Of a stretch of DNA of 33,095 nt, positions 6,782 through 27,092 are shown in pieces (position 1 is the stretch's first letter; the number at the start of each line of letters is the position of its first letter). Source of the DNA: a virus. The notes beneath the pieces were generated by a model that worked only from the letters and a program-made list of their open reading frames with translations, was not told the origin of the DNA and searched no databases. Made by a program: the position numbers and the translations under genes. The stretch is taken from IMG/VR virus record IMGVR_UViG_3300045988_124089; one strand, written 5' to 3'.

Positions 6782-6852
6782 GCGGAACCTTATCTCTTGA
6801 GCCTTCTGGTGAAATTGATATGCGGTGGAATGCAAGGTTCCGCTTATTTTTA
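6782..6852 (+). terminator. Terminator/attenuator-like hairpin immediately upstream of the HNH gene
   Basis: GCGGAACCTT (6782-6791) pairs perfectly with AAGGTTCCGC (6834-6843) and is followed by TTATTTTTA. The 42-nt enclosed loop is atypically large. Confidence 0.4.
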
Positions 6853-6870
6853 TGCAAACGAGGCGGACAC

Positions 6871-7164: not shown

Positions 7165-7288
7165 AATTTTGCGCATACTCCCCCCTGTCAAAAATATTTT
7201 GCTAACCACAGGAGACCGAGGGGCAAGGTTCATTTTTCCGCTCTCAGGATCTCAGGAATTTTTTTGGAAAGAAAGGAGTTGCAGGAAG
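7165..7288. other. Candidate cos / terminase recognition region
   Basis: Non-coding gap between HNH and terS, with a C-run (CTCCCCCCTG, 7179-7188) and tandem CTCAGGA x2 (7243-7257). The location is typical for cos in HNH-dependent packaging. No ends can be seen from sequence alone. Confidence 0.25.
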
Positions 7289-9275: not shown

Positions 9276-9279
9276 GATC

Positions 9280-10461: not shown

Positions 10462-11089
10462 AAAGCTTTTGAAAAAGCTGGAGGATGGGCGGGAGTACCG
10501 CGCCATGCGGCTTTCCGTCCGCTCCGATGAGGGTGCCGATTCCTCCATGGTTGTAGAAGGCTATGCGGCCACCTTCAACCAGCCCTATTTACTGTTCGAA
10601 GGCCGGGACTACAAGGTTATGGAACAGATCGATCCCAATGCGTTCAAAGAATGCGACATGTCCGATGTCATTTTCCAGTACGACCACACCGGGCGTGTCT
10701 TTGCAAGGACAAAAAACAACACCCTGACCTGTTCCACGGACGGGACGGGTCTGAAAATCACGGCAGACCTCGGCGGTACCGAAATTGGGCGGCAGTTGTT
10801 TGCCGAGATCAGGGATGGGTACACCGACAAGATGTCTTTCGGTTTTTCGGTCGCCGAGGACAAACGCGAATCGACCGAAGATCACGAAACCGGGTTTGTG
10901 ACCCTGACCCGGACGATCACTAAATTCAAAAAGCTGTACGATGTCAGCGCTGTGAGCCTCCCGGCCAATGACGCGACATCGATCAGTGCCCGGAATCTCT
11001 CGGACGGATTGATCGGAGAGATCAGAGCGGAGCGACTCAAGAGGGCAAATACCGTCCGCAGAATCAACCTGAAACTTTTGGGAGTGTGA
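10451..11089 (+). CDS. Prohead (capsid maturation) protease, HK97 family
   Basis: ATG 10451 overlaps the portal end. Motifs VVEGYAATFN...DPNAF.....DVIFQYDH.....ART...L....DGTGLKITADL...G..L...I..G..DKMSFGF match the S78 HK97 gp4 pattern. Confidence 0.88.
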   Translation: MQNEKLLKKLEDGREYRAMRLSVRSDEGADSSMVVEGYAATFNQPYLLFEGRDYKVMEQIDPNAFKECDMSDVIFQYDHTGRVFARTKNNTLTCSTDGTGLKITADLGGTEIGRQLFAEIRDGYTDKMSFGFSVAEDKRESTEDHETGFVTLTRTITKFKKLYDVSAVSLPANDATSISARNLSDGLIGEIRAERLKRANTVRRINLKLLGV

Positions 11090-11094
11090 CAGAA

Positions 11095-12285: not shown

Positions 12286-12301
12286 TAAGGCGGTGTGACC
12301 T

Positions 12302-12598
12302 ATGACGCAGCTGGAAATGGTCAAGCGGGCGCTGCGCATCACGGCGGCAGTGTTTGACGATGAGCTTTCTGCCCTCATCGAGGCGGCGCTGGATGATCTG
12401 GAGATCGCTGGCGTGGCCGCACGGGGCAACCCGGACAAGCCGCTCATCGCCCGCGCCGTCACGACTTACTGCAAGGCCAACTTTGGCGAGCCGGACGATT
12501 ATGACCGGCTCAAGGAGTCCTATGATGAGCAAAAATCCCAGCTCATGACGGCCTTCGGCTACGCAGAGAGGGTGGTGACGGATGAAAAAATACGCTGA
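12302..12598 (+). CDS. Head-tail connector (gp6-like, DNA-packaging QLRG-type)
   Basis: 98 aa. LEMVKRALRI...DDELSALIEAALDDLEIAGV is the typical gp6-like N-terminus. Synteny supports the call. Confidence 0.7.
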   Translation: MTQLEMVKRALRITAAVFDDELSALIEAALDDLEIAGVAARGNPDKPLIARAVTTYCKANFGEPDDYDRLKESYDEQKSQLMTAFGYAERVVTDEKIR

Positions 12599-12890
12599 GG
12601 TGACGCTGATCGGCGAAGAGCTGACCCGGAACGAGCGCTCGGAACAGGTGGCGGTGCAGACGGAAACGTCTGTGATCGGCACGCTGTCCGGCGTCACGGC
12701 GTCTGAATTCTATCAGGCCGCAAATTCCGGCTATCGCCCGGAAATCGTCGTCACGATCTATGAGCAGGAATATGCTCAGCAGCGGCGCATCCGCGTGGGT
12801 GATGTTGTCTATACCGTCATCCGCACCTACCTTTCCGGCGACTATATTGAGCTGCACTGCCAGCGGAAAGGGGCGGATGAAGATGGCTAA
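12582..12890 (+). CDS. Head closure / head-tail adaptor protein
   Basis: 102 aa, overlapping neighbours. Size and position match SPP1 gp16/HK97 gp9-type adaptors. Confidence 0.6.
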   Translation: MKKYAEVTLIGEELTRNERSEQVAVQTETSVIGTLSGVTASEFYQAANSGYRPEIVVTIYEQEYAQQRRIRVGDVVYTVIRTYLSGDYIELHCQRKGADEDG

Positions 12891-13347
12891 CCCGCCCAGC
12901 GGCATGAAGATCACCAAGAATGGAGTTACCTACCAGTCCAACATCGACCGGACCAAGTACACCATTCAGGAACTCAGCCGCGCCGCCCTCCGCGATGTTG
13001 GCAAGTACGTCGTCAAACAGACCCGTACTGCATCCGGTGCCCGCAAGCACATGGGCAGACTCACCATCAAGTCCCGCTTTTATGGCAAAAGCGGGGCTTT
13101 TTCGTGGTGGGTGAGAAAGAAAGAGACCGACCTTCAAGTCGGAATCAAACACAATACATGGTACGGCGTATTGCAGGAACTCGGCGACGGAAACCAGCCG
13201 CCTAAGAAAATCCTGACGACCGCCGTACAGGAAAACATTGATGAGATACGCAGGATAGAGGGACACTACCTGTCCGCCGTCGAGGACGAAAACCGCGCCC
13301 TCGGCCTGATCGATGACGAGGAGATGGAGCCAAATGACACCGACTAG
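12877..13347 (+). CDS. HK97 gp10-like tail-attachment/neck protein
   Basis: Start ATG 12877 or 12883. The motif NTWYGVLQELGDGNQPPKKILTTAVQEN resembles HK97 gp10-family 'a.y...lE.G......p.PflrpA'. Confidence 0.6.
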   Translation: MKMANPPSGMKITKNGVTYQSNIDRTKYTIQELSRAALRDVGKYVVKQTRTASGARKHMGRLTIKSRFYGKSGAFSWWVRKKETDLQVGIKHNTWYGVLQELGDGNQPPKKILTTAVQENIDEIRRIEGHYLSAVEDENRALGLIDDEEMEPNDTD

Positions 13348-13711
13348 TACCACCTTCGAGCGGTTTACCGCTGCCATTGGCGAAAAACTCCGCGAAGTGT
13401 CCACAGTGGACACCGTTTTCTACGAGCGGAGCCGCGAGGCGGGCTTTCCGCGCATCTGCTACACCGCGACGGTGTGGACGAGCGACAGCACCCTTCGCGG
13501 CACCCTGTCCTGCACCATCTCCGGCAATGGTCTGCCCTCTGAGGTGGACCATATCGCGCAGACCCTGCTGGATGAGTTGAATGTTTTTTCTTCTTGCTCC
13601 GACGAGCTGACCTATTATCTCTACAACGGCAGGACTGCCCCTGTTGAGGATAGTGACAAGAGCGTCACTATCCGACTTTTGACATTTGAGTTTTTAGCGA
13701 TGGGAGGTTAA
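13334..13711 (+). CDS. Tail completion/terminator-like protein
   Basis: 125 aa, called by position between the neck genes and the major tail protein. Contains palindrome copy 3. Confidence 0.45.
   Translation: MTPTSTTFERFTAAIGEKLREVSTVDTVFYERSREAGFPRICYTATVWTSDSTLRGTLSCTISGNGLPSEVDHIAQTLLDELNVFSSCSDELTYYLYNGRTAPVEDSDKSVTIRLLTFEFLAMGG
13397..13413. repeat. Palindrome copy 3: GTGTCCA-CAG-TGGACAC (inside tail gene)
   Basis: Exact copy, translated as V-S-T-V-D-T. Confidence 0.9.
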
Positions 13712-13717
13712 CCATCT

Positions 13718-14329
13718 ATGGCACTTTTTAACCACAAGCGCATGACCGGCCAGACGACCCAGACCAAGGATCGTTTGCAGTTGGGCGCCGGTATTTACGT
13801 CCGCGATTATAACCCCAAGACCGACACCTACGAGAGCCTCCGGCAGGACCCCAGCAAGCTGCTGGGCGCAACGACCGGCGGCGGTACGTTCACGGGCTCG
13901 AAGGTTGGCCACTGGCTCCAGATCGACGGCACCCCGGAAAATACCAAAGGAAACTATATTCTGGATTACTGGAAGGCCAGCCTCCAGACCACCATGCAGG
14001 AGATCACGCCGGAAATTTTGCAGATGGGCATGGCCGCCGCAACCATCACCACCGGAAGCACTGATCTTGAGGGTTACAAGGTCATCACCCCGAAAGACAG
14101 TCTGGACGATGAGGATTACATCGACAGCCTGTCCTTTATCGGTCGGCTGAGCGGCAGCTCTCTGCCCATCGTGCTGACCATTTTTAACGCATTCAACACC
14201 GGCGACCTGTCGATGAACCCGCAGGATCAGAAAGAGACGACCATCGCTCTGACGTTTGACGCGAGCTATGACGCCGACGATCTGGACAAGCAGCCCTATG
14301 TGATCTACTACCCCACTAAGGCCGAATAA
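13718..14329 (+). CDS. Major tail protein
   Basis: 203 aa with GGGAGG RBS. Lies immediately upstream of the G/GT chaperone pair and the tape measure. Confidence 0.7.
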   Translation: MALFNHKRMTGQTTQTKDRLQLGAGIYVRDYNPKTDTYESLRQDPSKLLGATTGGGTFTGSKVGHWLQIDGTPENTKGNYILDYWKASLQTTMQEITPEILQMGMAAATITTGSTDLEGYKVITPKDSLDDEDYIDSLSFIGRLSGSSLPIVLTIFNAFNTGDLSMNPQDQKETTIALTFDASYDADDLDKQPYVIYYPTKAE

Positions 14330-14343
14330 GGGAGGATAAAACA

Positions 14344-14694
14344 ATGCGGAAACTGAATGGCGGCGATGTCTTTGCTGCGCTGCGCCTGATGCGTGCTCTG
14401 GACTTGACGGAGCCCATCAAGGCCATTGGCAAGCAACTGGAACAGGCCAAAACCAACGACGACAAGAGCGCGGCGGGGCTGCAATTTCTGGGCACGCTGC
14501 TGGAAAATGCAACCGACCCCAAGGCCGAGGAACTTATCTGGAACTTTTTGGCCGGGCCGTTTGAGAAAAAGAACGGTGCCGCAGCAAAGGCGATGGAGAT
14601 CAACGAGCTGGCTGATGCGGTCTGCGAATTGATGAAGGAGAATGATCTGGCCGGTTTTTTCGGCAAGGTGCGGCGGTTGATCCCGATGAAGTAA
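14344..14694 (+). CDS. Tail assembly chaperone (G-like, zero-frame product)
   Basis: 116 aa, acidic, directly upstream of the tape measure. Contains a slippery heptamer near its 3' end. Confidence 0.75.
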   Translation: MRKLNGGDVFAALRLMRALDLTEPIKAIGKQLEQAKTNDDKSAAGLQFLGTLLENATDPKAEELIWNFLAGPFEKKNGAAAKAMEINELADAVCELMKENDLAGFFGKVRRLIPMK

Positions 14695-14972
14695 TAGATG
14701 CGGTTTTGCACCGTTACGGCGGGAACATCCGCTTTTTTGATGCGTGGACATGGGAAGAGACGGTGGCGTTTTTGCCGAAAATCCTCAAATTCGCGGCGGA
14801 AGATCAACTGCGGCTGCGGTGGTATCTCCGCTATGAGGAGGCATACCCGCACTTTGAGGATTTCAAGGCCGCACTCCTTCCCGCAGCGCCCGCACCAAAG
14901 GAAAAAGTCGAGTCTATCGTCGCCGACTCCTTGAAACTGCTGAATCTGGATTGGAGGGCCGAAAATGGCTAG
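14655..14972 (+). CDS. -1 frameshift extension of the tail assembly chaperone (GT-like product, 14344..14661 joined to the -1 frame through 14972)
   Basis: Slippery T_TTT_TTC at 14655-14661 in the X_XXY_YYZ register of the 14344 frame. The -1 frame is open from the slip site to TAG 14970-14972 (ORF 14706-14972 is its 3' part). It ends overlapping the TMP start. Confidence 0.7.
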   Translation, partial: FFRQGAAVDPDEVIDAVLHRYGGNIRFFDAWTWEETVAFLPKILKFAAEDQLRLRWYLRYEEAYPHFEDFKAALLPAAPAPKEKVESIVADSLKLLNLDWRAENG

Positions 14973-17220
14973 TGGTACTGAGATTTTCCGGCTGTTCGGC
15001 TCCATCCTGATCGACAGCACGGAGGCCGATAAAAGCCTGAGCAAGACCGATTTCGGTGCGAAAAAGGTGCAGGAAACGCTTGGAAAGGCCGTCACGGGTG
15101 CCGCAAAGTTTGCCGCCGGTGCCGCTGCCGCAATGACGGCAGCCGGTACGGCGGTTTTTAAGTTTGCGGACAGCGTGGCCTCGGTGGGCGACAACATCGA
15201 CAAGCAGAGCCAAAAGCTCGGCCTCAGCGCAAAGGCCTATCAAGAGTGGGATGCGATCTTAGGGCACTGCGGTGCCTCCATCGACTCCATGAAGGGCGGC
15301 ATGAAGACCCTGACCAAGGCAATTGCCGACGGCTCAGACGATCAGGTGGCCGCTTTTCAGGCCGTTGGCTTGAGCCTCGACCAAGTCAAGTCGATGTCCA
15401 CCGAGGATGTGTTCTCGGCAGTCATCACGGGACTGCAAGGTATGGAGGAGGGCGCAACGCGATCCCAGCTCGCCACCACTCTGCTGGGCAAGGCAGGGCA
15501 GGAACTGGGCCCGCTGCTCAACACCAGCGCAGAGGATACCGAGAAAATGCGTCAGGCGGTCAACGAGCTGGGCGGCGTCATGAGCGACGACGCCGTGGCC
15601 GCGTCGGCTTCGTTCAAGGACGCATTGCAGGACCTGACTACTATCGGCACCGGTTTCAAAAATTCCGTTGGCTCCATGGTGCTGCCATACGTCACCGAAG
15701 CGATGACCGCGATCACAGACGGCTTCCGACAGGATGGCATCGTGGGCATGGCAAACGCTGCCGTTGAGATCGTTTCTGATTTTGCGGGGAGGCTCGTGAC
15801 GGAGATCCCGAAACTGGCCACCAGCGCGACGCAGATGGTGACGGGACTGACCGGCTACATTGAGAGCCACATGGACGAGATTCTGGCGACCGGCGGCGAG
15901 CTTGTCCTCAATCTCGTGACGGCGATCACCGAAAATACCCCCAAACTGCTGGCAGCGGGAGTGAAGCTGGTTACGGCTCTCCTCAAGGGAATTATCCAGC
16001 ATTTGCCCGATATTGCTCACGCTGGCGTCCAAATCGTCGAAGCAATAGGCAAAGAAATTGCTGAGCTGATCCAAAAGGCGCTCAACTGGGGCGCTGATTT
16101 TGTGGCGAATATCGTTAAGGGCATCCGCGATAAAATCAGCTCTGTGGCCGATGCAGCAAAGGATGTGGCCGGTGCGGTCGCCAAATTCTTGCACCATACG
16201 ACCCCCGACGAAGGCCCTCTGGCCGGAGACGATCAGTGGATGCCGGAGATGATGCAGCAGTTTGCGGACGGCATCACTGAAAACACTCCCGCTGTGGCCG
16301 AGGCGGCGGAGCAAGCGGCGGAAAAAATTGCGACGCCCTTCTCGGATTTGTCCGGCAAAATTTCCAAACTGGTTTCCGACGGCCCCATCGGTTCCATCAA
16401 AAATCTGTATACTGCTGTCAAAAAGCAGGACTGGAAAAGCGTCGGCTCGTTTGTGGCGGAAGCGGTCTACAACGGCATGAGCACCGACCAAAAGGAAAAG
16501 GCAGAGACTACCGTTGTCGGTTGGCTGACCGCCCTCAATGATGCTTATTCTACTGGTGGATGGCAGAGCGTGTTTCAGCTCGGCGCCAGCGTTGCCAATA
16601 CGCTGAGCGCGACACTTTCCCAGCATTCCGGCGCTATCGTCACAGCCGGGTCGAAATGGCTGAACGGCCTCTATCAGTACGTGTCGAAATCGACACCAGT
16701 GCTGTCCGCGCTGGCAAAGCTGCTGGGCAAAGGACTTTTCAGTGGCATTACGGCATATTTCCCGCAACTTTTTGTTGCGATCGGCAGCGTTGTCAGTACA
16801 ATTGGTACTGCTTTGTCTGGCGTCATCTCCGCAGTGATTGCAACTCTGTCCGCAATCCCTGTTGAGGGCCTCGCACTGGCGGCTATTGCGGCTGCTGGTC
16901 TGGCGGCTTTGCTGATTACGCTGGCCAAGACTAAATCTGATCTCAACAAGCAGGGCGCATCCACGAACATCGCGACCCCCAGCGAGCCGACGCCTACACC
17001 GAGTTCACCGGCTCCGCCTATGCCGCCCAAGGACCCCGGAGGAAGCTCTTCGAGCGGTTCTTCCGGCACCGGCGGCTCTGGAAGCGGCTCCACCACAGAA
17101 GAGCCCACGCCGGGCGTTACGGTCGTGCAGTATATCTATACCAACACCGACGCCACCGCATCGGACTTGATGCGGGAAGCGATCTGGGAAGCGGAAAGGA
17201 GTGCTCTCGTTGGCTTATAA
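14965..17220 (+). CDS. Tape measure protein
   Basis: 751 aa, Ala/Gly-rich and helical, with hydrophobic segments near the C-terminus and a Pro/Ser/Gly-rich tail. Canonical position. Confidence 0.88.
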   Translation: MASGTEIFRLFGSILIDSTEADKSLSKTDFGAKKVQETLGKAVTGAAKFAAGAAAAMTAAGTAVFKFADSVASVGDNIDKQSQKLGLSAKAYQEWDAILGHCGASIDSMKGGMKTLTKAIADGSDDQVAAFQAVGLSLDQVKSMSTEDVFSAVITGLQGMEEGATRSQLATTLLGKAGQELGPLLNTSAEDTEKMRQAVNELGGVMSDDAVAASASFKDALQDLTTIGTGFKNSVGSMVLPYVTEAMTAITDGFRQDGIVGMANAAVEIVSDFAGRLVTEIPKLATSATQMVTGLTGYIESHMDEILATGGELVLNLVTAITENTPKLLAAGVKLVTALLKGIIQHLPDIAHAGVQIVEAIGKEIAELIQKALNWGADFVANIVKGIRDKISSVADAAKDVAGAVAKFLHHTTPDEGPLAGDDQWMPEMMQQFADGITENTPAVAEAAEQAAEKIATPFSDLSGKISKLVSDGPIGSIKNLYTAVKKQDWKSVGSFVAEAVYNGMSTDQKEKAETTVVGWLTALNDAYSTGGWQSVFQLGASVANTLSATLSQHSGAIVTAGSKWLNGLYQYVSKSTPVLSALAKLLGKGLFSGITAYFPQLFVAIGSVVSTIGTALSGVISAVIATLSAIPVEGLALAAIAAAGLAALLITLAKTKSDLNKQGASTNIATPSEPTPTPSSPAPPMPPKDPGGSSSSGSSGTGGSGSGSTTEEPTPGVTVVQYIYTNTDATASDLMREAIWEAERSALVGL

Positions 17221-18073
17221 AATCGATATCCAGACCGCCAATGGCCGCGAAGTGCTCATCAACGTGCCCGGCTCTGGTCTGAAAGGCAATCTTGACCCGA
17301 TCAGCGGCGTGGATGTGGATATCTCCACAAGTCAGAGCGTCAATCAGGTGGGTGAAAGCATTGACTCGCAGACCGTCGGCGGGGTTCTGCGTACGATCAG
17401 CGGCGAGTGCCTGAGCACCACAGCGGCGAAACAGCTTTTGTCCGCACTGCCGCCGCTCACGGAGGGACGTCTAATCCTGAACGATCTCTATTTCACGGAG
17501 TACGTGGTCAAAAAATCGCCCTACGTCGTCCGCACAGCGGGCAGCCGGAACGGCCGCACCTTTTCACTCATGCTCTACTGCCGAAAACCATACTGGCAGC
17601 GGCTGGATGCGACACAAACTGTCTTAGGTGGATTTTCGCCTACATTCCGGTTCCCGGTCAATTATTCCACGCCCCACCGCTTTGGCGTCAAAAGAGTAAA
17701 CGCATTTGTGAATATTCGGAATGACGGCGATTTTCCGGCCACCTTTCTGGCTGAATTTTCGGCAGTTGGTGGGAATGTGGAAAATCCGGTGCTGCTGAAT
17801 GTGGTGACATTGGAAAAACTCCGCTTTTTGACGACACTGACGGCGGGCCAGACTCTGCGCGTTTATCATGACAACGACCATTTGGCCGTTGTCCGGGTGG
17901 AACATCAAACCGAAACCGATGCTTTTGCCTTTCTGGATGACGACAGCAGCCTTTTTGAGCTTGCGGCAGGTGACAACATTCTCCGCGCCGGAGCAGACTC
18001 CGGTGAAGAAAGTTTGCAGTGCACGCTCTCTTTTTATGCGGCTTATATGGGGGTGTATCCAGATGATTTTTGA
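17201..18073 (+). CDS. Distal tail protein (Dit-like)
   Basis: About 290 aa, directly after the TMP. GTG 17201, or TTG 17210 which lies 9 nt after AAAGGA. Confidence 0.65.
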   Translation: MLSLAYKIDIQTANGREVLINVPGSGLKGNLDPISGVDVDISTSQSVNQVGESIDSQTVGGVLRTISGECLSTTAAKQLLSALPPLTEGRLILNDLYFTEYVVKKSPYVVRTAGSRNGRTFSLMLYCRKPYWQRLDATQTVLGGFSPTFRFPVNYSTPHRFGVKRVNAFVNIRNDGDFPATFLAEFSAVGGNVENPVLLNVVTLEKLRFLTTLTAGQTLRVYHDNDHLAVVRVEHQTETDAFAFLDDDSSLFELAAGDNILRAGADSGEESLQCTLSFYAAYMGVYPDDF

Positions 18074-19079
18074 TGTGATTGACCCGGATACCCTTTCGAC
18101 GATCCGACAGGTGAACACATGGCGCAGCATGACGTGGAAACGTGGATACAACACCGAAGGCAAGTTTTTGATCGAGGTGGACAACACCGCCGAAAACGCG
18201 CAATTGCTCTCGGCTGGCCGGTATCTGCGTGAGCATGGCACTGAAAATGCCGTTGTCCTGACCGCAGGGTATAATGAACCCGGCGGGCACACATGGGTCG
18301 CAACTGGGTACCCGCTGACCAACCTGCTCCGCAGACGGGTCAGCACTACCGTTATCAGTCAGCAGACGGCAGAGCTCGCCCTGCGAGCGCTCTTTGAAGA
18401 GTGTTTTTCCGAGGGCCGGGCGCTGCCACGGCTGAGCCTCGACGACCCGGCGGGGCTGACAGTCACATATGCGCAACAGCTCAGCGGGAAAAGCTTCTAT
18501 GAGTATGCTGAGACCATCTGTCAGGCGCTCGATATTGGGTTCCGGGTGCGGATGGTGGGGAGCAACGACGAAAAAAAGCTGCTGTTTGGGCTCTACCAGC
18601 CGCCGCGAAATCCAAACCTGAAATATCGCAAGCTCTATGGCAACCTCGAACAAGTCCAGCTCAAAATCTCCGATACCGATTATGCCAATGTGGCGTTGGT
18701 TCTGGGCTCCGGCGAGGGCGATACCCGCACAAAGTGCGTCGTCGGTGACATTGCCAGCACTGGAAACGCCCGGCGGGAGATCGTGATCGACGCCCGCGAC
18801 ATCCAGCCGCAGGATGGAGAGACCACCGCAAGCCAGAGCTATATCAACCGCCTTGCAATGCGTGGATACGAGAAACTGCTGGAAAAGCAGAAAATCGACA
18901 GTCTGAGTTTCCAGATCGCCGATGATGGCCGGGCAGAGCTGGGCAATATTGTCACTTGCATTGTCGATGGAGTGCGGCTGTCGTCTGAGGCGCGTATCAC
19001 TGAGATCGAGATCACAGGGAAAAAGGGAGCAATCAGCCGGAAAATCACGGTCGGAACTCCCGTTATTAGGAGGCGATAA
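18063..19079 (+). CDS. Tail-associated protein (Siphovirus Gp37/Tal-like)
   Basis: ATG 18063 overlaps the Dit stop. 338 aa. The upstream part of ORF 17868-19079 overlaps Dit and was rejected. Called by position after Dit. Confidence 0.55.
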   Translation: MIFDVIDPDTLSTIRQVNTWRSMTWKRGYNTEGKFLIEVDNTAENAQLLSAGRYLREHGTENAVVLTAGYNEPGGHTWVATGYPLTNLLRRRVSTTVISQQTAELALRALFEECFSEGRALPRLSLDDPAGLTVTYAQQLSGKSFYEYAETICQALDIGFRVRMVGSNDEKKLLFGLYQPPRNPNLKYRKLYGNLEQVQLKISDTDYANVALVLGSGEGDTRTKCVVGDIASTGNARREIVIDARDIQPQDGETTASQSYINRLAMRGYEKLLEKQKIDSLSFQIADDGRAELGNIVTCIVDGVRLSSEARITEIEITGKKGAISRKITVGTPVIRRR

Positions 19080-19081
19080 TT

Positions 19082-20896
19082 TTGGCTATTACTACTTACC
19101 CCCTCAACGGCATCGACTACGACGCCGCCGACGCTGCCGGGTTCACCGCCACCCGCACGTCGGGCGTGTACAGCAGCGAGGAGGATTTCGCCGTCACCGC
19201 GGCGGGCGGCTTGTCCGTGACCGTCAGCGCGGGCGTGGGCTGGGTGAACCCCGCCCGGTTTGAGGGCTACAGCGTCATCATGCGGGAGGCCGAGACCCTG
19301 ACCCTCGCCCTTGCGGACGGCCAGCGCCCCCGCATCGACCGCATCGTGCTGCGCTACGACGCAGCAGCCCGCAAGTCCTCCCTGCTGGTATTGCAGGGAA
19401 CCCCCGACACTCAGCCCACCGCGCCGGGCATCTCCCGCACGGCGCTGCTGTACGACCTGTGCCTCGCCCAGATCACCCGCCCCGCCGGTTCCACCACCAT
19501 CGTCACGGGCAACATCACCGACACCCGGCTCGACCCCGCCCTCTGCGGCGTCATGCGGGACGGCGTGACGGGCATCCCGACGGAGGAACTGATCGCGTCC
19601 GCGCGGGAGCGCATCAACGCGCTGGAAGAGACGGCCAGCGCCGCCGCCAAAGAGGCCGACGCCAGCAAGACCGCAGCGGCACAGTCGGAGGCCAACGCCG
19701 AGGCGTACAAAGAGGCCGCTGCTACGTCGGAGAGCAACGCCGCTGGCAGCGCCTCCGCCTCTGCCGATTCCGCTGCCGCAGCCGCCCGGAGCGAGAGCGC
19801 CGCGGCGGGAAGTGCCACGAAAGCAGTCGGCTCGGCCAGCGCAGCGGAGCAAGCCAAAGCGGCAGCGGCGACGTCGGAGGCCAACGCCGCCAAACATGAG
19901 GAAGCCGCAAAGAAAGCGGCTGACGAGGCCGGGGCCAAGGCAGGGACGGATAAGACCCTGAGCATTGAGAACGCACCGGCGGATGCAAAGGCCACCGGTG
20001 ACGCGCTGGCAAAAAAAGTGGGCAAGGATGTCATCCTCGACGAGGACGGCAACGTGATTTTTTACAGCAAAGCCGCTGTGGATGAGCTGCTGGCGGGCAA
20101 GCTCTCCCTCTCTGGCGGCACGCTGACTGGCCCGTTGATTCTTCCCGGTGGGATGACCGCTCTTGGCTATGCGAACAATGCGGGAAACCGCAATGCCATG
20201 CCGCCCCGTGACCGCAGCCTCGGTGCGCCCACCACAGAGCATTTCGAGATGATCGGAAGTGACAAGTACAACGAGCTATTCCTCGGCGACTACTGGACGG
20301 TGGAAGGCGTGGACTGGGTCATCGGCGATTTCAAGTTTTGGTACAACACTGGCGATACGGCTTGCACGAAGCCCCATGTTGTTGTGTTCCCCCGAAACAG
20401 ACTGTATACTTACAAGTTCAACCCCACCGACACGACTGCGGGCGGCTATGTTGGCTCTGACCTGTACAAGAACGGCCTGACGCAGGCAAGGCAGATGGTC
20501 ACTGCTGCATTTGGCTCTGCCCATATCCTGAACCACCGTGAATATCTGGTCAACGCTGTCACCAACGGCAAGCCTACTGGCACGGACTGGTACGACAGCA
20601 CTGTGGAGCTGATGAACGAGAACATGGTCTATGGCGGCAGACAGTTCAGCCCCATGCCGGACGGCGCAACTAACCCGTGGAGTACCTGCCGTAACTATAC
20701 CATCAACAAGAGCCAACTGTCCCTGTTCCGCTACGAGCCGTGGATGATTTGTAACGGACAGTGGTATTGGCTGCAAGACGTCGTCTCGGCAGTCGGTTTC
20801 GCGGATGTCAGCAGCTACGGCAACGGCCTTGCGGACTGCACCTCTGCCAGTAGAAACGGTGGCGTTCGCCCTGTCGTCGGTATCTGCCAACAATAA
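19082..20896 (+). CDS. Tail fibre / receptor-binding protein with Ala-rich coiled-coil stalk
   Basis: 604 aa; TTG start 10 nt after GGAGG. Conserved-looking N-terminal anchoring domain, then a ~150-aa A/S/E-rich stalk (AAKEADASKTAAAQSEANAEAYKEAAATSESNAAG...), then a globular W/Y/C-rich C-terminal domain. Confidence 0.65.
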   Translation: MAITTYPLNGIDYDAADAAGFTATRTSGVYSSEEDFAVTAAGGLSVTVSAGVGWVNPARFEGYSVIMREAETLTLALADGQRPRIDRIVLRYDAAARKSSLLVLQGTPDTQPTAPGISRTALLYDLCLAQITRPAGSTTIVTGNITDTRLDPALCGVMRDGVTGIPTEELIASARERINALEETASAAAKEADASKTAAAQSEANAEAYKEAAATSESNAAGSASASADSAAAAARSESAAAGSATKAVGSASAAEQAKAAAATSEANAAKHEEAAKKAADEAGAKAGTDKTLSIENAPADAKATGDALAKKVGKDVILDEDGNVIFYSKAAVDELLAGKLSLSGGTLTGPLILPGGMTALGYANNAGNRNAMPPRDRSLGAPTTEHFEMIGSDKYNELFLGDYWTVEGVDWVIGDFKFWYNTGDTACTKPHVVVFPRNRLYTYKFNPTDTTAGGYVGSDLYKNGLTQARQMVTAAFGSAHILNHREYLVNAVTNGKPTGTDWYDSTVELMNENMVYGGRQFSPMPDGATNPWSTCRNYTINKSQLSLFRYEPWMICNGQWYWLQDVVSAVGFADVSSYGNGLADCTSASRNGGVRPVVGICQQ

Positions 20897-21454: not shown

Positions 21455-22133
21455 TAAGACCATTATGGACGTCTCCCGCTGGCAGGGGCGCATCGACTGG
21501 GACAAGGTCAAGGCAAGCGGCCTTGTCTCCGGTGTGATGCTCAAAACTGTCAGCACAAACCGCAAGCTGAGCAAGCGCAAGGATGGGTTGTACATTGACC
21601 CGACCTTTGAGCGCAACTATGCCGAATGCAAGCGCGTTAGTCTGCCGGTCGGCGTATACTACTACACCTACGCCACCGATAAAGAGATGGCAGACGCAGA
21701 GCTTGCCTTGCTCAAGACTGCCTTGACCGGAAAGACCTTTGAGTTGCCCATAAGCGTGGACGTGGAGGACAACAAAATCAAGAAGCTGTCCACACAGGCG
21801 CTGACCGACCTTGCCGCTTATGCGCTTGCTACGGTGGAGCGCTGGGGCTTTTATGCCCTGCTGTATGTTGGGCTGAATTTTGCGCAGACGGAGTTGTACA
21901 TGGGTGGCGCGGCGCTGCGCAAGTACGATGTATGGCTGGCAAGATATCCCGGAGACAAGAGCAAGACCAAACCGGAGGACAAGCCCAAAACAGACTTTTC
22001 CTTTGGGATGTGGCAGTACACCAGCACCGCCAGCGTTCCGGGCGTGAGCGGCAACGTAGACCTGAGCCATGCGTATAAGGACTATGCTGCCATCATTGCG
22101 AAAAAGGGGCTTGACAGGCTCCGGGAGGTGTAA
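21447..22133 (+). CDS. Endolysin, GH25 muramidase family
   Basis: MADKTIMDVSRWQGRIDWDKVKASG....MLK......DPTFERNY......PVGVYYY.....ELPISVDVED matches the GH25 (DxSxWQ ... D.E) signature. Confidence 0.85.
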   Translation: MADKTIMDVSRWQGRIDWDKVKASGLVSGVMLKTVSTNRKLSKRKDGLYIDPTFERNYAECKRVSLPVGVYYYTYATDKEMADAELALLKTALTGKTFELPISVDVEDNKIKKLSTQALTDLAAYALATVERWGFYALLYVGLNFAQTELYMGGAALRKYDVWLARYPGDKSKTKPEDKPKTDFSFGMWQYTSTASVPGVSGNVDLSHAYKDYAAIIAKKGLDRLREV

Positions 22134-22807: not shown

Positions 22808-23044
22808 ATGGGCACTACATACGAGCATTTTGTTGACACTAGCAAAATGTACGTCGCACAAGAGCAATTTCGGCACATCACGAAAATGGTCTGCGCATGT
22901 CTTCGTGGCCTCACGAAAACATACCATCTCGGCAACGTCCCCGTAATGGTGCGCAACGCCGGACAGTTGCCGCAGCCTTTCTGGCTCGGTGCTGCCCGTG
23001 GCGGCGGCTCGCGTAGTGCTGCCCGCTGCGCTGCAAGGACTTGA
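22808..23044 (+). pseudogene. 5' part of a frame-broken sigma-region-4-like gene (or independent small ORF)
   Basis: Strong AAGGAGG RBS before ATG 22808. The ORF ends at 23044, while the HTH-encoding frame (open from 22947) has no RBS of its own. Confidence 0.3.
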
Positions 23045-23216
23045 CCGACAGCAGATGACCGCCGCCATCAAAAGCGCACCGCTTGGGAGGGTGGACCGTA
23101 AGATAGCCTTACTGCGGTACGTTGAGCGGCTCCCGCTGCCGGACATTGCGGCACAGACACATTACAGCCGGAGAGCCGTGTGCTACCGGCTGGACAAAAT
23201 AAAGCGTCTTTTCTGA
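22989..23216 (+). CDS. Sigma-70 region-4-like HTH segment
   Basis: LQGLDRQQMTAAIKS....RKIALLRYVERLPLPDIAAQTHYSRRAVCYRLDKIKRLF resembles sigma region 4.1/4.2. The nominal GTG start lacks an RBS. Confidence 0.5.
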   Translation: MLPVAAARVVLPAALQGLDRQQMTAAIKSAPLGRVDRKIALLRYVERLPLPDIAAQTHYSRRAVCYRLDKIKRLF

Positions 23217-23225: not shown

Positions 23226-23266
23226 AATCCCCCGGTGTCCACAGTGGACATCGGGGGATTTTTTGT
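23226..23266 (+). terminator. Strong intrinsic terminator (contains palindrome copy 4, 23235-23251)
   Basis: AATCCCCCG-GTGTCCA-CAG-TGGACAT-CGGGGGATT forms a ~16-bp stem followed by a T-run. Confidence 0.85.
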
Positions 23267-23280
23267 TATACGGATTTTTT

Positions 23281-23316
23281 CAGCGCCTGTGCATTTTTTG
23301 CATGGGCGCTTTTTTG
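23281..23316 (+). terminator. Second, tandem intrinsic terminator
   Basis: AGCGCC...GGCGCT stem with an internal TGCA/TGCA, followed by TTTTTTGTTTC. Confidence 0.55.
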
Positions 23317-23399
23317 TTTCTTTCGTTGCGCACTCCCTGCGCACTCGCATCCGGCCATACTGCTACACTTAGGCCACAAAAGCAAGGGAGGATTGCGAT

Positions 23400-23804
23400 A
23401 TGGGTATGTATGACGGTTGGTCACATCCGAATCAGTACAACCGCCAGCCGTACAACGGATACGGCCAGATGCAGCAGCCGCAGGTGGCGCAAAACCCGTT
23501 TCTGATGGTGCCGACCATCGCGGATGTGGACAAGGTGGTTGCTCAAGCAGGGGAGACCCGCTGGATCATGGTGCAAAACGATGCGGTCATCGCGGTCAAG
23601 ACGGCCAATGCGATGGGATACGCGACCACGGAGTACTACCGGCTGTCAAAGTTCGACCCGGCGGCCATGCAGACACCGGCACCGGGCTGCAACTATGTGA
23701 CCGAGCAGCAGATGGAAGAGCGGATCAACGCCGCGATCTCTCAGGTGATGAGTCAGATGCAGCCTGTTCCCGCCGCAAAATCCACCCGGACTAAGGAGGC
23801 ATAA
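23400..23804 (+). CDS. Cargo cassette gene A: hypothetical, Q/N/Y-rich N-terminus
   Basis: 134 aa with GGGAGGA RBS. N-terminus NQYNRQPYNGYGQMQQPQVAQNP. Confidence 0.6.
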   Translation: MGMYDGWSHPNQYNRQPYNGYGQMQQPQVAQNPFLMVPTIADVDKVVAQAGETRWIMVQNDAVIAVKTANAMGYATTEYYRLSKFDPAAMQTPAPGCNYVTEQQMEERINAAISQVMSQMQPVPAAKSTRTKEA

Positions 23805-23806
23805 CG

Positions 23807-24034
23807 ATGAGTAACCCGCTGATGCAGTTCATGGGCGGCGGTGCGCCGTCCGGCCTTCCCGGCCCTCTGGGCAACATGGCGCAGATTTTGCAGCAGTTCC
23901 AGCAGTTCCGGGCCTCTTTTAAGGGCGACCCGAAGCAACAGGTGGAGATGCTGCGGAAGTCCGGTAAGATGTCGGATGCTCAGTATCAGCAACTGGAGGC
24001 AATGGCCAAGCAGATCATGCCCTTCCTCAAGTAG
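23807..24034 (+). CDS. Cargo cassette gene B: small Q-rich helical protein
   Basis: 75 aa with AAGGAGG RBS. Sequence MSNPLMQFMGGGAPSG...ILQQFQQFRASFKGDPKQQVEMLRKSGKMSDAQYQQLEAMAKQIM. Confidence 0.6.
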   Translation: MSNPLMQFMGGGAPSGLPGPLGNMAQILQQFQQFRASFKGDPKQQVEMLRKSGKMSDAQYQQLEAMAKQIMPFLK

Positions 24035-24093
24035 TCGGAGAGTTGTGCGCACAACTTGAAATATATTCACAATTCGCAAGAAAGGAAATCAAT

Positions 24094-24732
24094 ATGGACA
24101 ATATGAGTCTTAGCGATATCGCTGCCGTGACCCGTGGCAACGATAACGACGGCTGGGGACAGGGCGGCGCGTGGTGGATCATCATCCTCTTCCTGTTCGT
24201 CTTTATGGGCGGCGGTGGCCTGTGGGGCAACCGTCAGGGCGAGTATGGTCAGTATGCCACTGCGGCAAGCCAGCAGGAAATCCTCTATGGCCAGCAGTTC
24301 GGCCAGATCAACGACCGCCTGACCAACATCGGCAACGGTATCTGTAATCTCGGCTATGAGATGCAGGGCAACATCGGCCAGCTCGGCAAGGAAGTTGCTC
24401 TGGCACAGGCTGGTACCAACACCACCATCCTCCAGACCGGAAACAGCATCCAGAGCCAGCTCGCACAGTGCTGCTGCGACAACCGTCTGGCAACGGCCAA
24501 TCTGTCCGCTCAGATGGACAAGCAGACCTGCGCGATCAACTCCAACATCGACGCGAAGTTTGCCGAACTCCAGAAGAACCAGCTTGAGCAGACCATCGCG
24601 GCACAGGCCCAGCGCATCAACCAGTTGGAACTCCAGAGCCAGATGACCAACGTTGTGCGGTATCCTAACGGGTACACCTACAACGCAGGGCCGTCGCCCT
24701 TCTGCGGCTGCAATGGCTGTGGCAACATCTAA
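24094..24732 (+). CDS. Cargo cassette gene C: membrane-anchored Q/N-rich coiled-coil protein with Cys-rich C-terminus
   Basis: ATG 24094. Gly/Trp segment plus TM (GGAWWIIILFLFVFMGGGGLWG), long Q/N-rich repeats, a CCC motif, and the C-terminal sequence FCGCNGCGNI. Confidence 0.6.
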   Translation: MDNMSLSDIAAVTRGNDNDGWGQGGAWWIIILFLFVFMGGGGLWGNRQGEYGQYATAASQQEILYGQQFGQINDRLTNIGNGICNLGYEMQGNIGQLGKEVALAQAGTNTTILQTGNSIQSQLAQCCCDNRLATANLSAQMDKQTCAINSNIDAKFAELQKNQLEQTIAAQAQRINQLELQSQMTNVVRYPNGYTYNAGPSPFCGCNGCGNI

Positions 24733-24759
24733 CATCTGACGCCCTATCGGCGAGGACAC

Positions 24760-24792
24760 GCGGGGCGGCAAAAGCTGCTCCGCTTATTTTTT
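24760..24792 (+). terminator. Intrinsic terminator/attenuator between cassette genes C and D
   Basis: GCGGGGCGGC-AAAA-GCTGCTCCGC forms a 10-bp stem (2 G-U pairs) followed by TTATTTTTT. Confidence 0.65.
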
Positions 24793-24807
24793 AAGGAGGA
24801 TATGACT

Positions 24808-25206
24808 ATGTCTAGGTCTGCTATCTATACCGCCAATACCACCCCCACCGCTCTCGCGGTCGGCAGCATCATCCCCGTGGGAACCACGGTGCGCCGTTTC
24901 GGTAAGTGCATCCGGCAGGACGGCAACACCATCACGCTGGCCGGGCCCGGCTACTATCTGGTCAACGCCTCGGCCACCGTTGCACCCACCGCCGCCGGTA
25001 CGGTCTCCGTTACCGGCCAGAAGGACGGCGTCGCTGTGATTGGTGCCACTGCGGCCGCCACTACGACCGTAGCAGCCGAATCGGCAAATCTGTCGCTGGA
25101 TTTCATCGTCCTCAATGTCGGCTGCGGCAGTTCCATCCTGTCCTTTATGCTGGGCGGCGCAGATTCTACGGTCTCCAATCTGGCCGTGACCGTCACCAAG
25201 CTGTGA
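24808..25206 (+). CDS. Cargo cassette gene D: beta-rich protein, BclA-C-terminal/C1q-TNF-like pattern
   Basis: ATG 24808 lies 8 nt after GGAGG (alternative 24802). The pattern FGKCIRQDGNTITLAGPGYYLVNASATVAP..GTVSVTGQKDGVAVIG...LSLDFIV......SILSF resembles BclA-CTD-type jelly rolls. Recognition by eye only. Confidence 0.4.
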   Translation: MSRSAIYTANTTPTALAVGSIIPVGTTVRRFGKCIRQDGNTITLAGPGYYLVNASATVAPTAAGTVSVTGQKDGVAVIGATAAATTTVAAESANLSLDFIVLNVGCGSSILSFMLGGADSTVSNLAVTVTKL

Positions 25207-25219
25207 GGAGGTAACTGCC

Positions 25220-25729
25220 ATGTGTTACGATGATCTGCGTGCACGCATGTGCAAGGAGCTTCATGATATCGAGGAGCGGGGGACATTCTGCCGCTGTGAT
25301 CTCGACGACGCCCACAAGCTGATCGAGAGCATCTGCGGCCTCGACGCCATGTCTGCCCCCGCTGAAGAGCACCACAAGGCAGACAAGCACGAAACCGCCC
25401 ACGTTGAGCACGCCGCTCATCCGGCGCACCTCACCCTAGAGGACGCGAAGCGCTGGACGTCCAAAATGCAAAACGCCGACGGCACCACCGGATCACACTG
25501 GACGCCGGATCAGACTAGCGCCGTGATGTCTCAGCGCGGGCTGTCCTATGATAAGGCCGATTTTTACGCGGCCATGAATATGATGTACTCCGATTACTGC
25601 ACGATTGCCAAGTCCTACGGCATCGATACCGCGAACTTTTACGCAGACCTCGCCGCCGCCTTTCTGACGGACAAGGACGCCGTGCCCGGCAAGATCGTGG
25701 AGTACTGGGAGACTATCGCGAGCGACTGA
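25220..25729 (+). CDS. Cargo cassette gene E: hypothetical, Cys pairs at N-terminus, His-rich linker
   Basis: 169 aa with GAGGAGG RBS. MCYDDLRARMC...CRC...ICG, then EEHHKADKHETAHVEHAAHPAH, then a conserved-looking C-terminal domain (NMMYSDY...FLTDKDA). Confidence 0.6.
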   Translation: MCYDDLRARMCKELHDIEERGTFCRCDLDDAHKLIESICGLDAMSAPAEEHHKADKHETAHVEHAAHPAHLTLEDAKRWTSKMQNADGTTGSHWTPDQTSAVMSQRGLSYDKADFYAAMNMMYSDYCTIAKSYGIDTANFYADLAAAFLTDKDAVPGKIVEYWETIASD

Positions 25730-25736: not shown

Positions 25737-25758
25737 TGACTACTTTTTGACTACTTTT
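25737..25758. repeat. attP arm-type repeat pair TGACTACTTTT x2 (left arm)
   Basis: Tandem 11-mers at 25737 and 25748. The same motif is repeated at 25933 and 25944. Confidence 0.6.
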
Positions 25759-25785
25759 CGCACGTCAAAAGCTGAGACTATACGT

Positions 25786-25805
25786 TAGTATCTGCTAGTA
25801 TCTGC
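25786..25805. repeat. Tandem TAGTATCTGC x2
   Basis: Direct reading. Lies inside the attP region. Confidence 0.7.
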
Positions 25806-25821
25806 AACTCAAAATAAATAC

Positions 25822-25866
25822 AAAAAAGCGCATGACTGCTAAAAATTCAGCAATCATGCGCTTTTT
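25822..25866. terminator. Bidirectional intrinsic terminator
   Basis: A-run, then GCGCATGA...TCATGCGC (8 bp, with inner TGCT/AGCA), then T-run. Separates the cargo cassette from attP/int. Confidence 0.75.
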
Positions 25867-25870
25867 CCTA

Positions 25871-25895
25871 TAGTTGCGCCAGCAGGAGTCGAACC
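25871..25895 (-). other. Candidate attP core: 3' fragment of a tRNA gene (T-loop, T-stem 3' strand, acceptor 3' strand)
   Basis: The reverse complement reads GGTTCGACTCC-TGC-TGGCGCA-A-CTA. The upstream half of the tRNA is absent (the T-stem 5' strand does not pair). Located about 60 bp from the integrase stop. Confidence 0.55.
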
Positions 25896-25932: not shown

Positions 25933-25954
25933 TGACTACTTCTTGACTACTTTT
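25933..25954. repeat. attP arm-type repeat pair TGACTACTTCT/TGACTACTTTT (right arm)
   Basis: Same orientation as the left pair. Overlaps the integrase stop codon. Confidence 0.6.
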
Positions 25955-27092
25955 ATTTATCCTCATCATCATAAAATTTAATCATTTTTTCGGTGGCATC
26001 TTTTAGCTTGCGCTCTCGGATATGAGTATATATTTTGTACGTTGTCGAGATGTCCGCGTGACCCATGATCTTTTTTGCCTCCAGCACTCCAACACCGGCA
26101 TCGTATAAGTCCGACGCGAACGAGTGCCGGAACTGGTGAGCCGTAACGGTTGGCTCCATTACAGGCGGCAATGGATTTTTAGTCGCTTTTGGGCCTCGGC
26201 GGCTATCTCTGTATCTTGTCTTGCTCTCACTCGGCTGAACGAGTCCCAGCTTCGTGCAATACGCAAGCCATCGGCTGTGATACTCTGCATCGGTTAAGGG
26301 CCTTGCCATGCCACCGATGATATATTCTGTCGGCTTGCCCCGGCGCGGCTCTATCTCTCGCTTGAGATGGGGCATAAGCGGGATGACCCGGACGCCGTTA
26401 TTGGTTTTAGGGCCCTGTATTTTGACACCGCCACCTGACCATGACACTTTTTTGCTGACATAGATTTTGTTACTTTCGAAATCTATGTCCTCCCATCGGA
26501 GAGCAATCAGCTCACCCAGACGGCAGCCGGTGTACATCAGCATCCATGCGCACAGCCCGAACCCTTCGGGATGCGCCCGGAAAAGAGCAAGCTCCTTGTC
26601 TGTAGGCGGTTCCCGGATAGCCGCGGGCTTCCCGGCGGGGGACTTGATATCCTGCATCGGATTGTAAGATGATCCGCTTGCAAGCCGCCACCCCCGGAAA
26701 ATCCCTCGCAATATGCTGATCGTGTTCCGAATGCTGCTCGTTGATAACCCCTCATCTTTGAGAGACTGCCCGAAACTTACGATCATGACCGGCGTAATTT
26801 CATCCATCCGTTTGCCCGAAAAAAATTGGACGCAACGTTCATAGTTAGACCTATATGTTGAGTCCGTCCCGTCTATGATGCGTTTGAGCAGCTTGTCCCA
26901 ATAATCAGCAGCAACAATTTCAAAAAGCTCTGCCTTACTTTCGGCTTCCGCTTTTTGGATTAGTGCTTCTTTGTATTTTGCCTCTGCTTCAGATTTTGTT
27001 TTTCCGTAAAAAAAGCGATATTTTCCATCCGGCATCTTTCGCTTGATCTGACAGCGCCCATCCGGGCGCATCCCTTTACTTTTTCTCGGCAT
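25953..27092 (-). CDS. int: Tyrosine integrase/recombinase
   Basis: 379 aa. N-terminal SAM-like/arm-binding region, then catalytic motifs TGCRLGEL (R), HQFRHSFAS (HxxR) and GHADISTTYKIYTH (Y). Confidence 0.93.
   Translation of the reverse strand: MPRKSKGMRPDGRCQIKRKMPDGKYRFFYGKTKSEAEAKYKEALIQKAEAESKAELFEIVAADYWDKLLKRIIDGTDSTYRSNYERCVQFFSGKRMDEITPVMIVSFGQSLKDEGLSTSSIRNTISILRGIFRGWRLASGSSYNPMQDIKSPAGKPAAIREPPTDKELALFRAHPEGFGLCAWMLMYTGCRLGELIALRWEDIDFESNKIYVSKKVSWSGGGVKIQGPKTNNGVRVIPLMPHLKREIEPRRGKPTEYIIGGMARPLTDAEYHSRWLAYCTKLGLVQPSESKTRYRDSRRGPKATKNPLPPVMEPTVTAHQFRHSFASDLYDAGVGVLEAKKIMGHADISTTYKIYTHIRERKLKDATEKMIKFYDDEDK

Follow-up and report, generated by a model that had tools for sequence, protein, structure and literature searches.

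The IMG/VR virus record IMGVR_UViG_3300045988_124089 is a DNA of 33,095 nucleotides (nt), analysed at its full length and hereafter called the window, in which five open reading frames (ORFs), A to E, are located between the lysis genes and the phage attachment site attP. The genome is that of a temperate phage of siphovirus type and is in the attP configuration. Examination of the window and of related loci in other genomes confirmed that A to E are a separate unit insulated by terminators and that attP lies beside it. It is tentatively proposed that A to E are an activator-dependent "late-late" operon, that this operon is part of the conserved backbone of a very large group of temperate gut phages, and that its products would build a membrane-tethered assembly in the infected cell; this reading is preferred here with some reserve.

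Gene order and distribution of the module

The ORFs A to E were taken from the window sequence, and because each has numerous homologues on other contigs they are considered to be genes and not chance ORFs. A total of 232 related loci were fetched, the first 226 of which were analysed by tblastn searches, iterated hidden Markov models (HMMs) and clustering of flanking genes. The order (A)-B-C-D(-E) is conserved among these 226 loci, with the patterns BCD (59 loci), ABCD (55), BCDE (48) and ABCDE (11), and B directly precedes C in most of them. In most close relatives, E is exchanged for an unrelated protein of 112 amino acids (aa); since the fifth gene varies, the constant unit is (A)-B-C-D. 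The initial annotation of this DNA, which was made from the window sequence alone, had described a five-gene cassette and raised the question of whether its genes co-occur in other prophages. All five ORFs and the sequence motifs quoted at that time are present, and the genes do recur together outside this genome, in the same order, in more than 200 loci; the part of the description that must be modified is the number five, as the last position is variable.

The carriers of the module range from phages of Oscillospiraceae and Lachnospiraceae to phages of Bacteroidales and include both siphovirus and myovirus types, a near-identical module (C 94% identical) being present in myovirus-type prophages. 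The module is situated after the lysis genes (after tail genes in locus L200, the sole Bacteroidales-type locus examined for position), at the far right end of the prophage. A recombinase gene was found within 4 kb downstream in 90 of the 143 loci that have at least 4 kb of downstream sequence, and in other loci the module abuts host DNA. In a 917-kb contig (L223:9132-11474), the module together with tail and lysis genes adjoins genes of the AAA_25, Mob_Pre and D5_N/DUF5906 primase families, with no integrase gene, which suggests a decayed or composite prophage.

The host of the phage group to which the window belongs is most likely Faecalibacterium prausnitzii. A protein of this species encoded on a 175-kb contig (WP_097840148.1/PDX80147.1) is a member of the 90%-identity cluster of E, and the G+C content of the window (55-60%) agrees with such a host. 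When C was compared by tblastn with 50,697 phage records, no cultured phage that carries the module was found; the matches were to uncultured human-faecal phages and to one Vibrio phage, the latter being a weak match (E=2e-4) to a hypothetical protein.

Within the F. prausnitzii group, identity is approximately 90% for C, falls to approximately 65% for D and falls to approximately 55% for A, which is the most variable member of the module. The module itself is constant in this group, and the gap between it and sig, the small regulator gene that precedes it, carries variable inserts, of which the window has none. For example, the regulator gene and the module promoter are separated by three reverse-strand genes (encoding 107, 115 and 150 aa) in L225:7861-9033, and a gene encoding a collagen-repeat protein of 593 aa lies between the p113 gene and the regulator gene in L224:6681-8462. 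The cargo hotspot looks like the DNA around the regulator gene rather than A to E, and the module appears to be a conserved backbone element, not optional cargo. The initial interpretation of A to E as a cargo or lysogenic-conversion cassette is therefore not retained, since the module is a conserved part of the backbone in hundreds of widely differing phages and its expression is predicted (below) to belong to the lytic phase.

More distant versions of the module contain additional genes. The consensus among distant Clostridia loci consists of holin and endolysin genes, a helix-turn-helix (HTH) gene resembling region 4 of sigma-70 (sigma-r4), a gene designated f10, then A, B, C, D, a gene for an E-like protein and a gene for a protein of approximately 105 aa. 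The f10 product (approximately 126 aa; L186:6182-6562, L211:2305-2691 and 25 other loci) has invariant residues Asp18, Cys19, Arg22, His98 and Asp109 and looks like a papain-like Cys-His-Asp enzyme; it has no match in Pfam, and its profile returned only noise from the Protein Data Bank (PDB). Other distant versions have SprT-like or HExxH proteins after the module, and neither these nor f10 are present in the window. The Bacteroidales-type version comprises an HTH protein, C, a small beta-rich protein, an A-like protein, a DUF7841 protein and an HExxH protein. In the Paludibacteraceae-associated locus L200 (12266-15401), the module is followed by a reverse transcriptase gene (phrog_1423, E=1e-50), itself preceded by an ORF of 393 aa; the arrangement is probably a diversity-generating retroelement.

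The regulator gene, the A promoter and the boundaries of the module

The regulator gene sig overlaps another reading frame, ORF1 (Table 1). ORF1 terminates 10 nt before the ATG at 23055, and the ORF1/sig pair begins 10 nt past the preceding gene. Public gene calls annotate ORF1 and leave the HTH of sig uncalled. In one relative (L038), an indel of 1 nt joins ORF1 and the HTH in frame as a protein of 140 aa; the arrangement in the window could represent two coupled genes or a programmed frameshift. The match of sig to the Pfam family Sigma70_r4_2 (E=1e-3, 19.1 bits) is below the curated cut-off of 25.7 bits, and among its positional equivalents f12 scores 26.2 bits, above that cut-off, while f21 reaches 22 bits with Sigma70_r4. 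In all lineages, Bacteroidales included, the module is preceded by a small HTH gene of the sigma-r4-like kind. The sigma-region-4-like gene mentioned in the initial annotation is indeed present, and covariation now ties it to the module, as follows.

The promoter of A has no consensus -35 element; the proximal copy of a tandem repeat, TGCGCACTC, occupies the -35 position. The -10 element TACACT is approximately 30 nt upstream of the ribosome-binding site (RBS) of A. Upstream of A, relatives share the terminator, two or three tandem repeats with a period of 11 bp, TACACT and the RBS, and distant relatives likewise have a terminator followed by a -10-like element. The TGCGCACTC repeat was found at the A promoter and nowhere else in the window, for which reason its identification as a general late-gene operator was rejected. 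Among relatives, the sequence of the repeat covaries with that of the recognition helix of the regulator: the helix YSRRAVCY(R/H)L is paired with TGCGCACTC repeats in all 17 distinct loci where it occurs, and the helices YSRTA(V/I)GYRL or YCRTSIGNRL are paired with TTCGTTG repeats (26 of 26 loci). This pairing holds across 0.6-3.8 kb of unrelated DNA between sig and the promoter. Both classes of repeat occur with both alleles of the 5' untranslated region (5'UTR) and A gene, so recombination has apparently reshuffled the neighbours of sig and its site but not their pairing. From this good though indirect evidence, we infer that sig encodes the cognate regulator of the A promoter, and because the promoter has no -35 element, activation by sig is likelier than repression. 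A possible pairing of sig with C as an ECF-type (extracytoplasmic function) sigma factor and its anti-sigma factor was also considered, and was rejected because a Pfam search found no anti-sigma domain in C.

Late regulators that consist of little more than an HTH and act at the -35 position include GerE of Bacillus and Mor/C of phage Mu, and PhoB-type regulators act similarly at pho-box promoters. The predicted sig product resembles these in its size (54-75 aa), in being essentially a single HTH of the sigma-r4/LuxR type, and in that tandem repeats with an 11-bp period take the place of the -35 element. As with mom of phage Mu, the target of sig is at the far right end of the prophage and would belong to the last temporal class of genes. 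However, no sequence membership of sig in these families was detected, the matches (Mor, E=0.03; GerE, E=0.016) being to distant equivalents only, and both binding and activation by sig are predicted.

The transcription that leads to sig was considered next to the terminators that surround A to E. Scans of the + strand from the lysis genes to sig revealed no promoter-like site and no strong terminator, the only hairpins in this stretch being weak ones of 5 and 6 bp inside the endolysin gene (21832-21860). Therefore, the late transcript would be the sole source of sig, as its final product, and A to E would be "late-late" genes. A scan of the late genes (positions 1-20000) found no hairpin longer than 8 bp, so that the late genes resemble one long transcript that ends at the double terminator, and the terminators around A to E stand out. 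The insulation of the module at the lysis-attP junction, as first proposed from the window, is real, with stems of 16, 12 and 20 bp and an attP core that corresponds to a tRNA-Gln 3' end. The proposed internal attenuator is also real and conserved: of 126 distinct C-D spacers, 91 contain a hairpin followed by a T tail, the stem sequences differing among lineages, and this element is taken here to be a conserved attenuator or stabiliser. It implies that A, B and C would be made in excess over D and E.

The attP core GGTTCGACTCCTGCTGGCGCAA occurs once in the window, and a chance match is not expected. In L002, a related prophage carried on a bacterial contig, this 22-mer forms the 3' end of an intact tRNA-Gln(TTG) gene; collinearity between L002 and the window extends from the E stop codon to the core, and the two sequences diverge directly past it. 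Three prophage contigs of IMG/VR terminate at this 22-mer. The presence of a complete tRNA gene in the window was rejected, as ARAGORN found no full tRNA and only the 3' part is there, which is what attP predicts. Four GACTACTT repeats in the same orientation flank the core, two on each side, and two copies of another repeat, TAGTATCTGC, are found at 25784-25806, between E and the terminator. The GACTACTT and TAGTATCTGC repeats are likely arm-type binding sites of integrase and excisionase (Int/Xis).

Table 1. Features of the window from the end of the lysis genes to the integrase gene
Feature	Position	Strand	Description
ORF1	22808..23044	+	78 aa; own RBS AAGGAGG; directly after lysis genes; overlaps 5' part of sig in another frame
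sig	22989..23216	+	sigma-70-region-4/LuxR-GerE-like HTH; ORF of 75 aa, likely start ATG 23055 giving 54 aa
Tandem intrinsic terminators	23226..23310 (23226-23260 and 23282-23310)	+	stems of 16 bp and 12 bp with T runs; end the late/lysis transcript
Promoter repeats	23327..23346	+	two direct TGCGCACTC copies, 11-bp period; proximal copy ends 17 nt before -10
A promoter -10	23364..23369	+	TACACT; conserved in relatives of either repeat class and either 5'UTR/A allele
A	23400..23804	+	Q/N/Y/P-rich N-terminus, small conserved beta domain and C-terminal helix (family alignment)
B	23807..24034	+	helical, 75 aa, with many Met, Gln and Phe residues; phrog_22984, E=9e-13
C	24094..24732	+	phrog_16490 match; ORF opens at 24043, actual start ATG 24094
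C-D hairpin	24760..24783	+	10-bp GC-rich stem with T tail; predicted internal attenuator or 3' transcript stabiliser
D	24802..25206	+	predicted stand-alone BclA-C-terminal/C1q/TNF-type jelly roll; homologues start at 24808 (second Met)
E	25220..25729	+	N-terminal Cys-containing helical part, His-rich linker, C-terminal DUF7841; variable fifth position
attP arm, module side	25738..25758	+	two GACTACTTTT repeats, read from the sequence; region conserved up to the core in L002
Bidirectional terminator	25822..25867	both	20-bp stem; forms the module's far end and its insulation from int and the att site
attP core	25874..25895	-	GGTTCGACTCCTGCTGGCGCAA, identical to the 3' end of tRNA-Gln(TTG); approximately 145 nt beyond E
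attP arm, integrase side	25934..25954	+	two GACTACTT repeats, read from the sequence
Tyrosine integrase	25953..27092	-	phrog_1, E=2e-60; Phage_integrase Pfam family in public gene calls

Known genes at the junction of lysis genes and attP include morons and lysogenic-conversion cassettes, such as bor and lom of phage lambda and the toxin genes of streptococcal prophages. The module shares with them its position, its flanking terminators and, judging from conservation, its own promoter, and this classic arrangement could indicate that the cassette is transcribed in the prophage and that C and its partners block superinfection (DNA entry) or confer abortive infection or another defence. The presence of a membrane-anchored protein would suit such a role, as would the much faster divergence of D and A than of C, which is reminiscent of an arms race, and the predicted proteases of distant versions (the Cys-His-Asp set of f10; SprT-like or HExxH proteins). 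However, sporadic presence among related phages would be expected of morons, whereas the module is constant in relatives, keeps a fixed order of four to seven genes on hundreds of unrelated phage backbones and has the variable genes upstream of it; moreover, known exclusion systems have one or two genes. No match beyond noise was found in PADLOC or NCBIfam, contrary to the earlier suggestion of a defence module: the best PADLOC-DB scores (E=0.006 and 0.07) are to coiled-coil-like parts of C, and nothing was found for A, B, D, E or sig. Lytic rather than lysogenic expression is predicted, since the promoter lacks a -35 element and its dedicated regulator, at the end of the late operon, is apparently co-transcribed only with late and lysis genes. 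Expression as a moron in the lysogen is therefore considered rather unlikely, although superinfection exclusion is a possible activity of the module.

Proteins of the module

The product of D is, with high confidence in its structural model, a C1q/TNF-like jelly roll of the BclA_C type, in agreement with the resemblance noted initially. The AlphaFold2 (AF2) model of D is all-beta, with 11 strands and a mean predicted local distance difference test (pLDDT) score of 94.3. A Foldseek search of the PDB gave 354 matches at E<=1e-3, of which the BclA C-terminal domain was first (3twi/1wck; E=5e-11, template-modelling (TM) score 0.77), and which also included F-BclA, BxpB (TM score 0.83), ExsFA, C1q, ligands of the TNF family and tail-fibre domains of cyanophages. 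The top matches in BFVD are stand-alone proteins of 130-150 aa from uncultured gut phages (TM score approximately 0.9), two of them labelled "BclA protein", followed by the heads of collagen-like and tail-fibre proteins; a homologue of D is also named "BclA protein" in nr. A sequence search of D against the PDB gave only noise, and weak Pfam matches of D to MinC_C and to XM1 gp53 were treated as noise or as a lead only. The 134 aa of D consist of the jelly roll alone, with no GXY repeats or collagen region, no exosporium-targeting N-terminus and no signal peptide.

The closest structural relatives of D are proteins of the exosporium. Like D, BxpB/ExsF is a stand-alone domain (approximately 135-165 aa) that has no signal peptide and is encoded beside Cys-rich partners, and its trimers dock the terminal peptides of partner proteins (PDB 9h3d, among the Foldseek matches). 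Over the range of TM scores from 0.77 to 0.83, the BclA C-terminal domain and BxpB/ExsFA have the same fold as D but are only 12-20% identical to it, and D differs from them in having no collagen-like region or exosporium-targeting motif, in originating from a phage of a non-sporulating host and in having a membrane-anchored CCC protein as its presumed partner. The initial annotation had suggested remodelling of spore surfaces, by which phage proteins would join the spore coat or exosporium. The Cys-, Gly- and Tyr-rich composition of the module proteins and their assembly without signal peptides do resemble those of coat proteins, and the regulator is an HTH protein of the size of GerE with a weak match to the GerE Pfam family. 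Faecalibacterium prausnitzii, however, is a non-sporulating organism, and variants of the module are found in phages of the Bacteroidales type, so that a function on spores is very improbable. No relevant publication on BclA-like genes in prophages of gut bacteria, or on lysogenic conversion in Faecalibacterium, was found in a literature search.

Head domains with the fold of D also occur in many phage tail and collagen-like fibres, and D is variable, as receptor-binding proteins are. The module might thus encode an accessory fibre or decoration of the virion, with C as the stalk, D as the head and A, B and E as chaperones, attached to capsid, neck or tail and binding glycans on bacteria or in mucus; the predicted late expression, the collagen-like gene that adjoins the module in one relative and the weak Pfam match of D to a minor capsid protein family (E=0.13) would be in keeping with this. 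Yet near-identical modules are found in siphovirus and myovirus types with unrelated virion genes, which is hard to reconcile with a specific site of attachment to the virion. The module is also outside the structural operon and behind terminators, the hydrophobic segment of C is of membrane type, the attenuator predicts unequal amounts of stalk and head, and the phage already encodes Dit, Tal and a fibre protein of 604 aa. A virion fibre is thus judged improbable. An embedded satellite or small virus with a jelly-roll capsid was rejected because there are no replication or packaging genes.

The start codon of C was set by homologues of 212-213 aa that begin with MDNMSLSD. C has an acidic N-terminal tail, a single hydrophobic segment between Gly-rich stretches, a PxP-Y motif and a C-terminal tail of the GCGC type. 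In alignments, the sequence QLAQCCCDNR (Q123, C127-C129) is invariant and Cys147 is nearly so; the median number of Cys residues per protein is 10, and the features of C are kept across lineages that are only 25-40% identical. The family comprises at least 7,882 clusters at 90% identity, and at 50% identity it comprises 3,774 clusters at E<=1e-3 and 597 at E<=1e-30. Among the matches listed, all relatives of C are single-domain proteins of 170-340 aa that are never fused to others and have no Pfam domain and no informative name. A sequence search of C against the PDB found nothing beyond noise, and the AF2 monomer model from an alignment of 64 sequences was uninformative (pLDDT 44), so that the coiled coil proposed initially is at most putative. 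The N-terminal tail has 0.4 Lys/Arg and 2.8 Asp/Glu, and the sequence after the transmembrane segment has 0.9 Lys/Arg; this weak charge bias is compatible with an N-out/C-in topology in which the bulk of C is cytoplasmic. The invariant cysteines of C may mediate assembly by disulfide or metal links.

In having an N-terminal membrane anchor, a helical region and conserved cysteines, and in its proximity to lysis genes, C recalls i-spanins of the Rz type. The module is always directly downstream of holin and endolysin genes, and late timing is predicted, all of which could point to an accessory of lysis or release, in which C completes the disruption of the envelope or frees progeny from debris. 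No sequence similarity to Rz was found, however, nor is there an o-spanin or other lipoprotein partner, A, B, D and E all being devoid of a lipobox. Most of the hosts are monoderm, two strong terminators and a separate regulator divide the module from the lysis cassette, and the TNF-like jelly roll and DUF7841 have no counterparts in known lysis systems. Such a function of C is accordingly thought quite improbable.

For A, searches of the PDB with the sequence and with family profiles gave only noise. Residues 67-163 of E match DUF7841 with 95.2 bits against a cut-off of 25.2 (E=4e-27), and DUF7841 is also present in the Bacteroidales-type module (E=1e-26); PDB searches with the E sequence and with the DUF7841 profile gave only noise, and a literature search found nothing on DUF7841. 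This family and the PHROG families 16490 and 22984, to which E, C and B respectively belong or are matched, all lack an assigned function. The His-rich linker of E is not conserved even among close relatives in the family alignment, which argues against the metal linkage through this stretch that had been envisaged. No hydrophobic N-terminus, signal peptide or lipobox was found in A, B, D or E. Together with the charge bias of C, weak as it is, the lack of export signals suggests assembly on the cytoplasmic face of the membrane and speaks against the cell-surface role proposed initially.

Elsewhere, the window encodes a large terminase, portal, major head protein, tape measure, Dit and tail proteins, a GH25 endolysin with two small membrane proteins, a tyrosine integrase and a repressor-like HTH protein. 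The tail/fibre protein of 604 aa (19082-20896) has a long low-complexity middle rich in Ala, Ser and Glu, which accounts for a local peak in G+C (0.68); its N-terminal part is similar to "head protein" PHROGs and its central part to tail-fibre PHROGs. Positions 6346-6396 contain 5.7 copies of TGTCCGAAA with a period of 9 bp, at the very start of the ORF (6332-6973) immediately ahead of the terminase gene; these could be a regulatory or packaging-related array that heads the late operon. Clustered tandem repeats of 17-23 bp (AGTGGCAAAACGCCACT and others) in the early region (2538-2671) are iteron-like and may mark the replication origin.

Possible action of the module and its significance

According to the preferred reading of A to E as an activator-dependent late-late operon, the late transcript, which sequence scans show to pass unterminated through the tail and lysis genes, would yield sig as its last product, a matter of predicted timing, and would stop at the double terminator. 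The sig protein would then bind the two or three tandem 9-bp repeats spaced by 11 bp, the proximal one at the -35 position, and switch on A, B and C, with the hairpin after C passing only part of the transcripts into D and E. C would insert into the cytoplasmic membrane by its single Gly-flanked hydrophobic segment, with its bulk probably in the cytoplasm, and A, B, D and E would assemble on it, with A, B and E as accessory components. The CCC motif and GCGC tail of C may join subunits or partners by metal or thiol chemistry, and D, which is presumed to be trimeric and diverges fast, may be a head that binds ligands or docks peptides, by analogy with BxpB/ExsF and BclA. The place of action of the assembly would be the dying cell, within it or upon it, when the lytic cycle ends, and neither the lysogen nor the spore; a speculative best guess is a membrane-tethered complex with an effect on the cell envelope or debris during release, by exclusion or receptor masking. 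Apart from how D folds, the order of the genes, attP and the covariation of sig with its sites, all that is said here of function is our inference.

Several considerations weigh against this scheme. The position beside attP, the flanking terminators and the separate promoter would fit a lysogen-expressed moron equally well. The sig gene might have an unrecognised promoter that is active in lysogens, or its product could act as a repressor; in the window, sig is below the Pfam threshold and in an unusual frame overlapping ORF1. The covariation covers two to three allele classes in related F. prausnitzii phages and thus few independent events. The topology of C is based on a weak charge bias, and its AF2 model failed.

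Those parts of the module that can be classified belong to known types, namely a jelly roll, a sigma-r4-like HTH protein and a unit insulated by terminators where the lysis genes meet attP. As far as the searches go, there is no earlier description of their combination, together with an invariant CCC protein, in a conserved, self-regulated module. It is conceivable, though far from certain, that the regulator and (protease)-A-B-C-D-E constitute an undescribed but widespread machinery found only in phages of gut anaerobes, activated by sig in the final minutes of the lytic cycle, tethered to the membrane, linked by Cys or metal and bearing a fast-evolving C1q/TNF-like head. It would serve a step of the life cycle, such as release, exclusion, or the protection or targeting of progeny, for which there is at present no known system. 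The covariation of sig and its repeats would define a cognate activator-operator pair with natural variants of specificity, which is a testable prediction. For annotation, the example indicates that adjacency to attP and insulation by terminators are together insufficient to call lysogenic-conversion cargo. The C family, with its thousands of clusters from human and animal gut metagenomes, is without a domain model, name or literature, and the presence of the module in prophages of key commensals (Faecalibacterium, Oscillospiraceae, Lachnospiraceae and Bacteroidales) represents a sizeable unexplored part of gut-phage biology.

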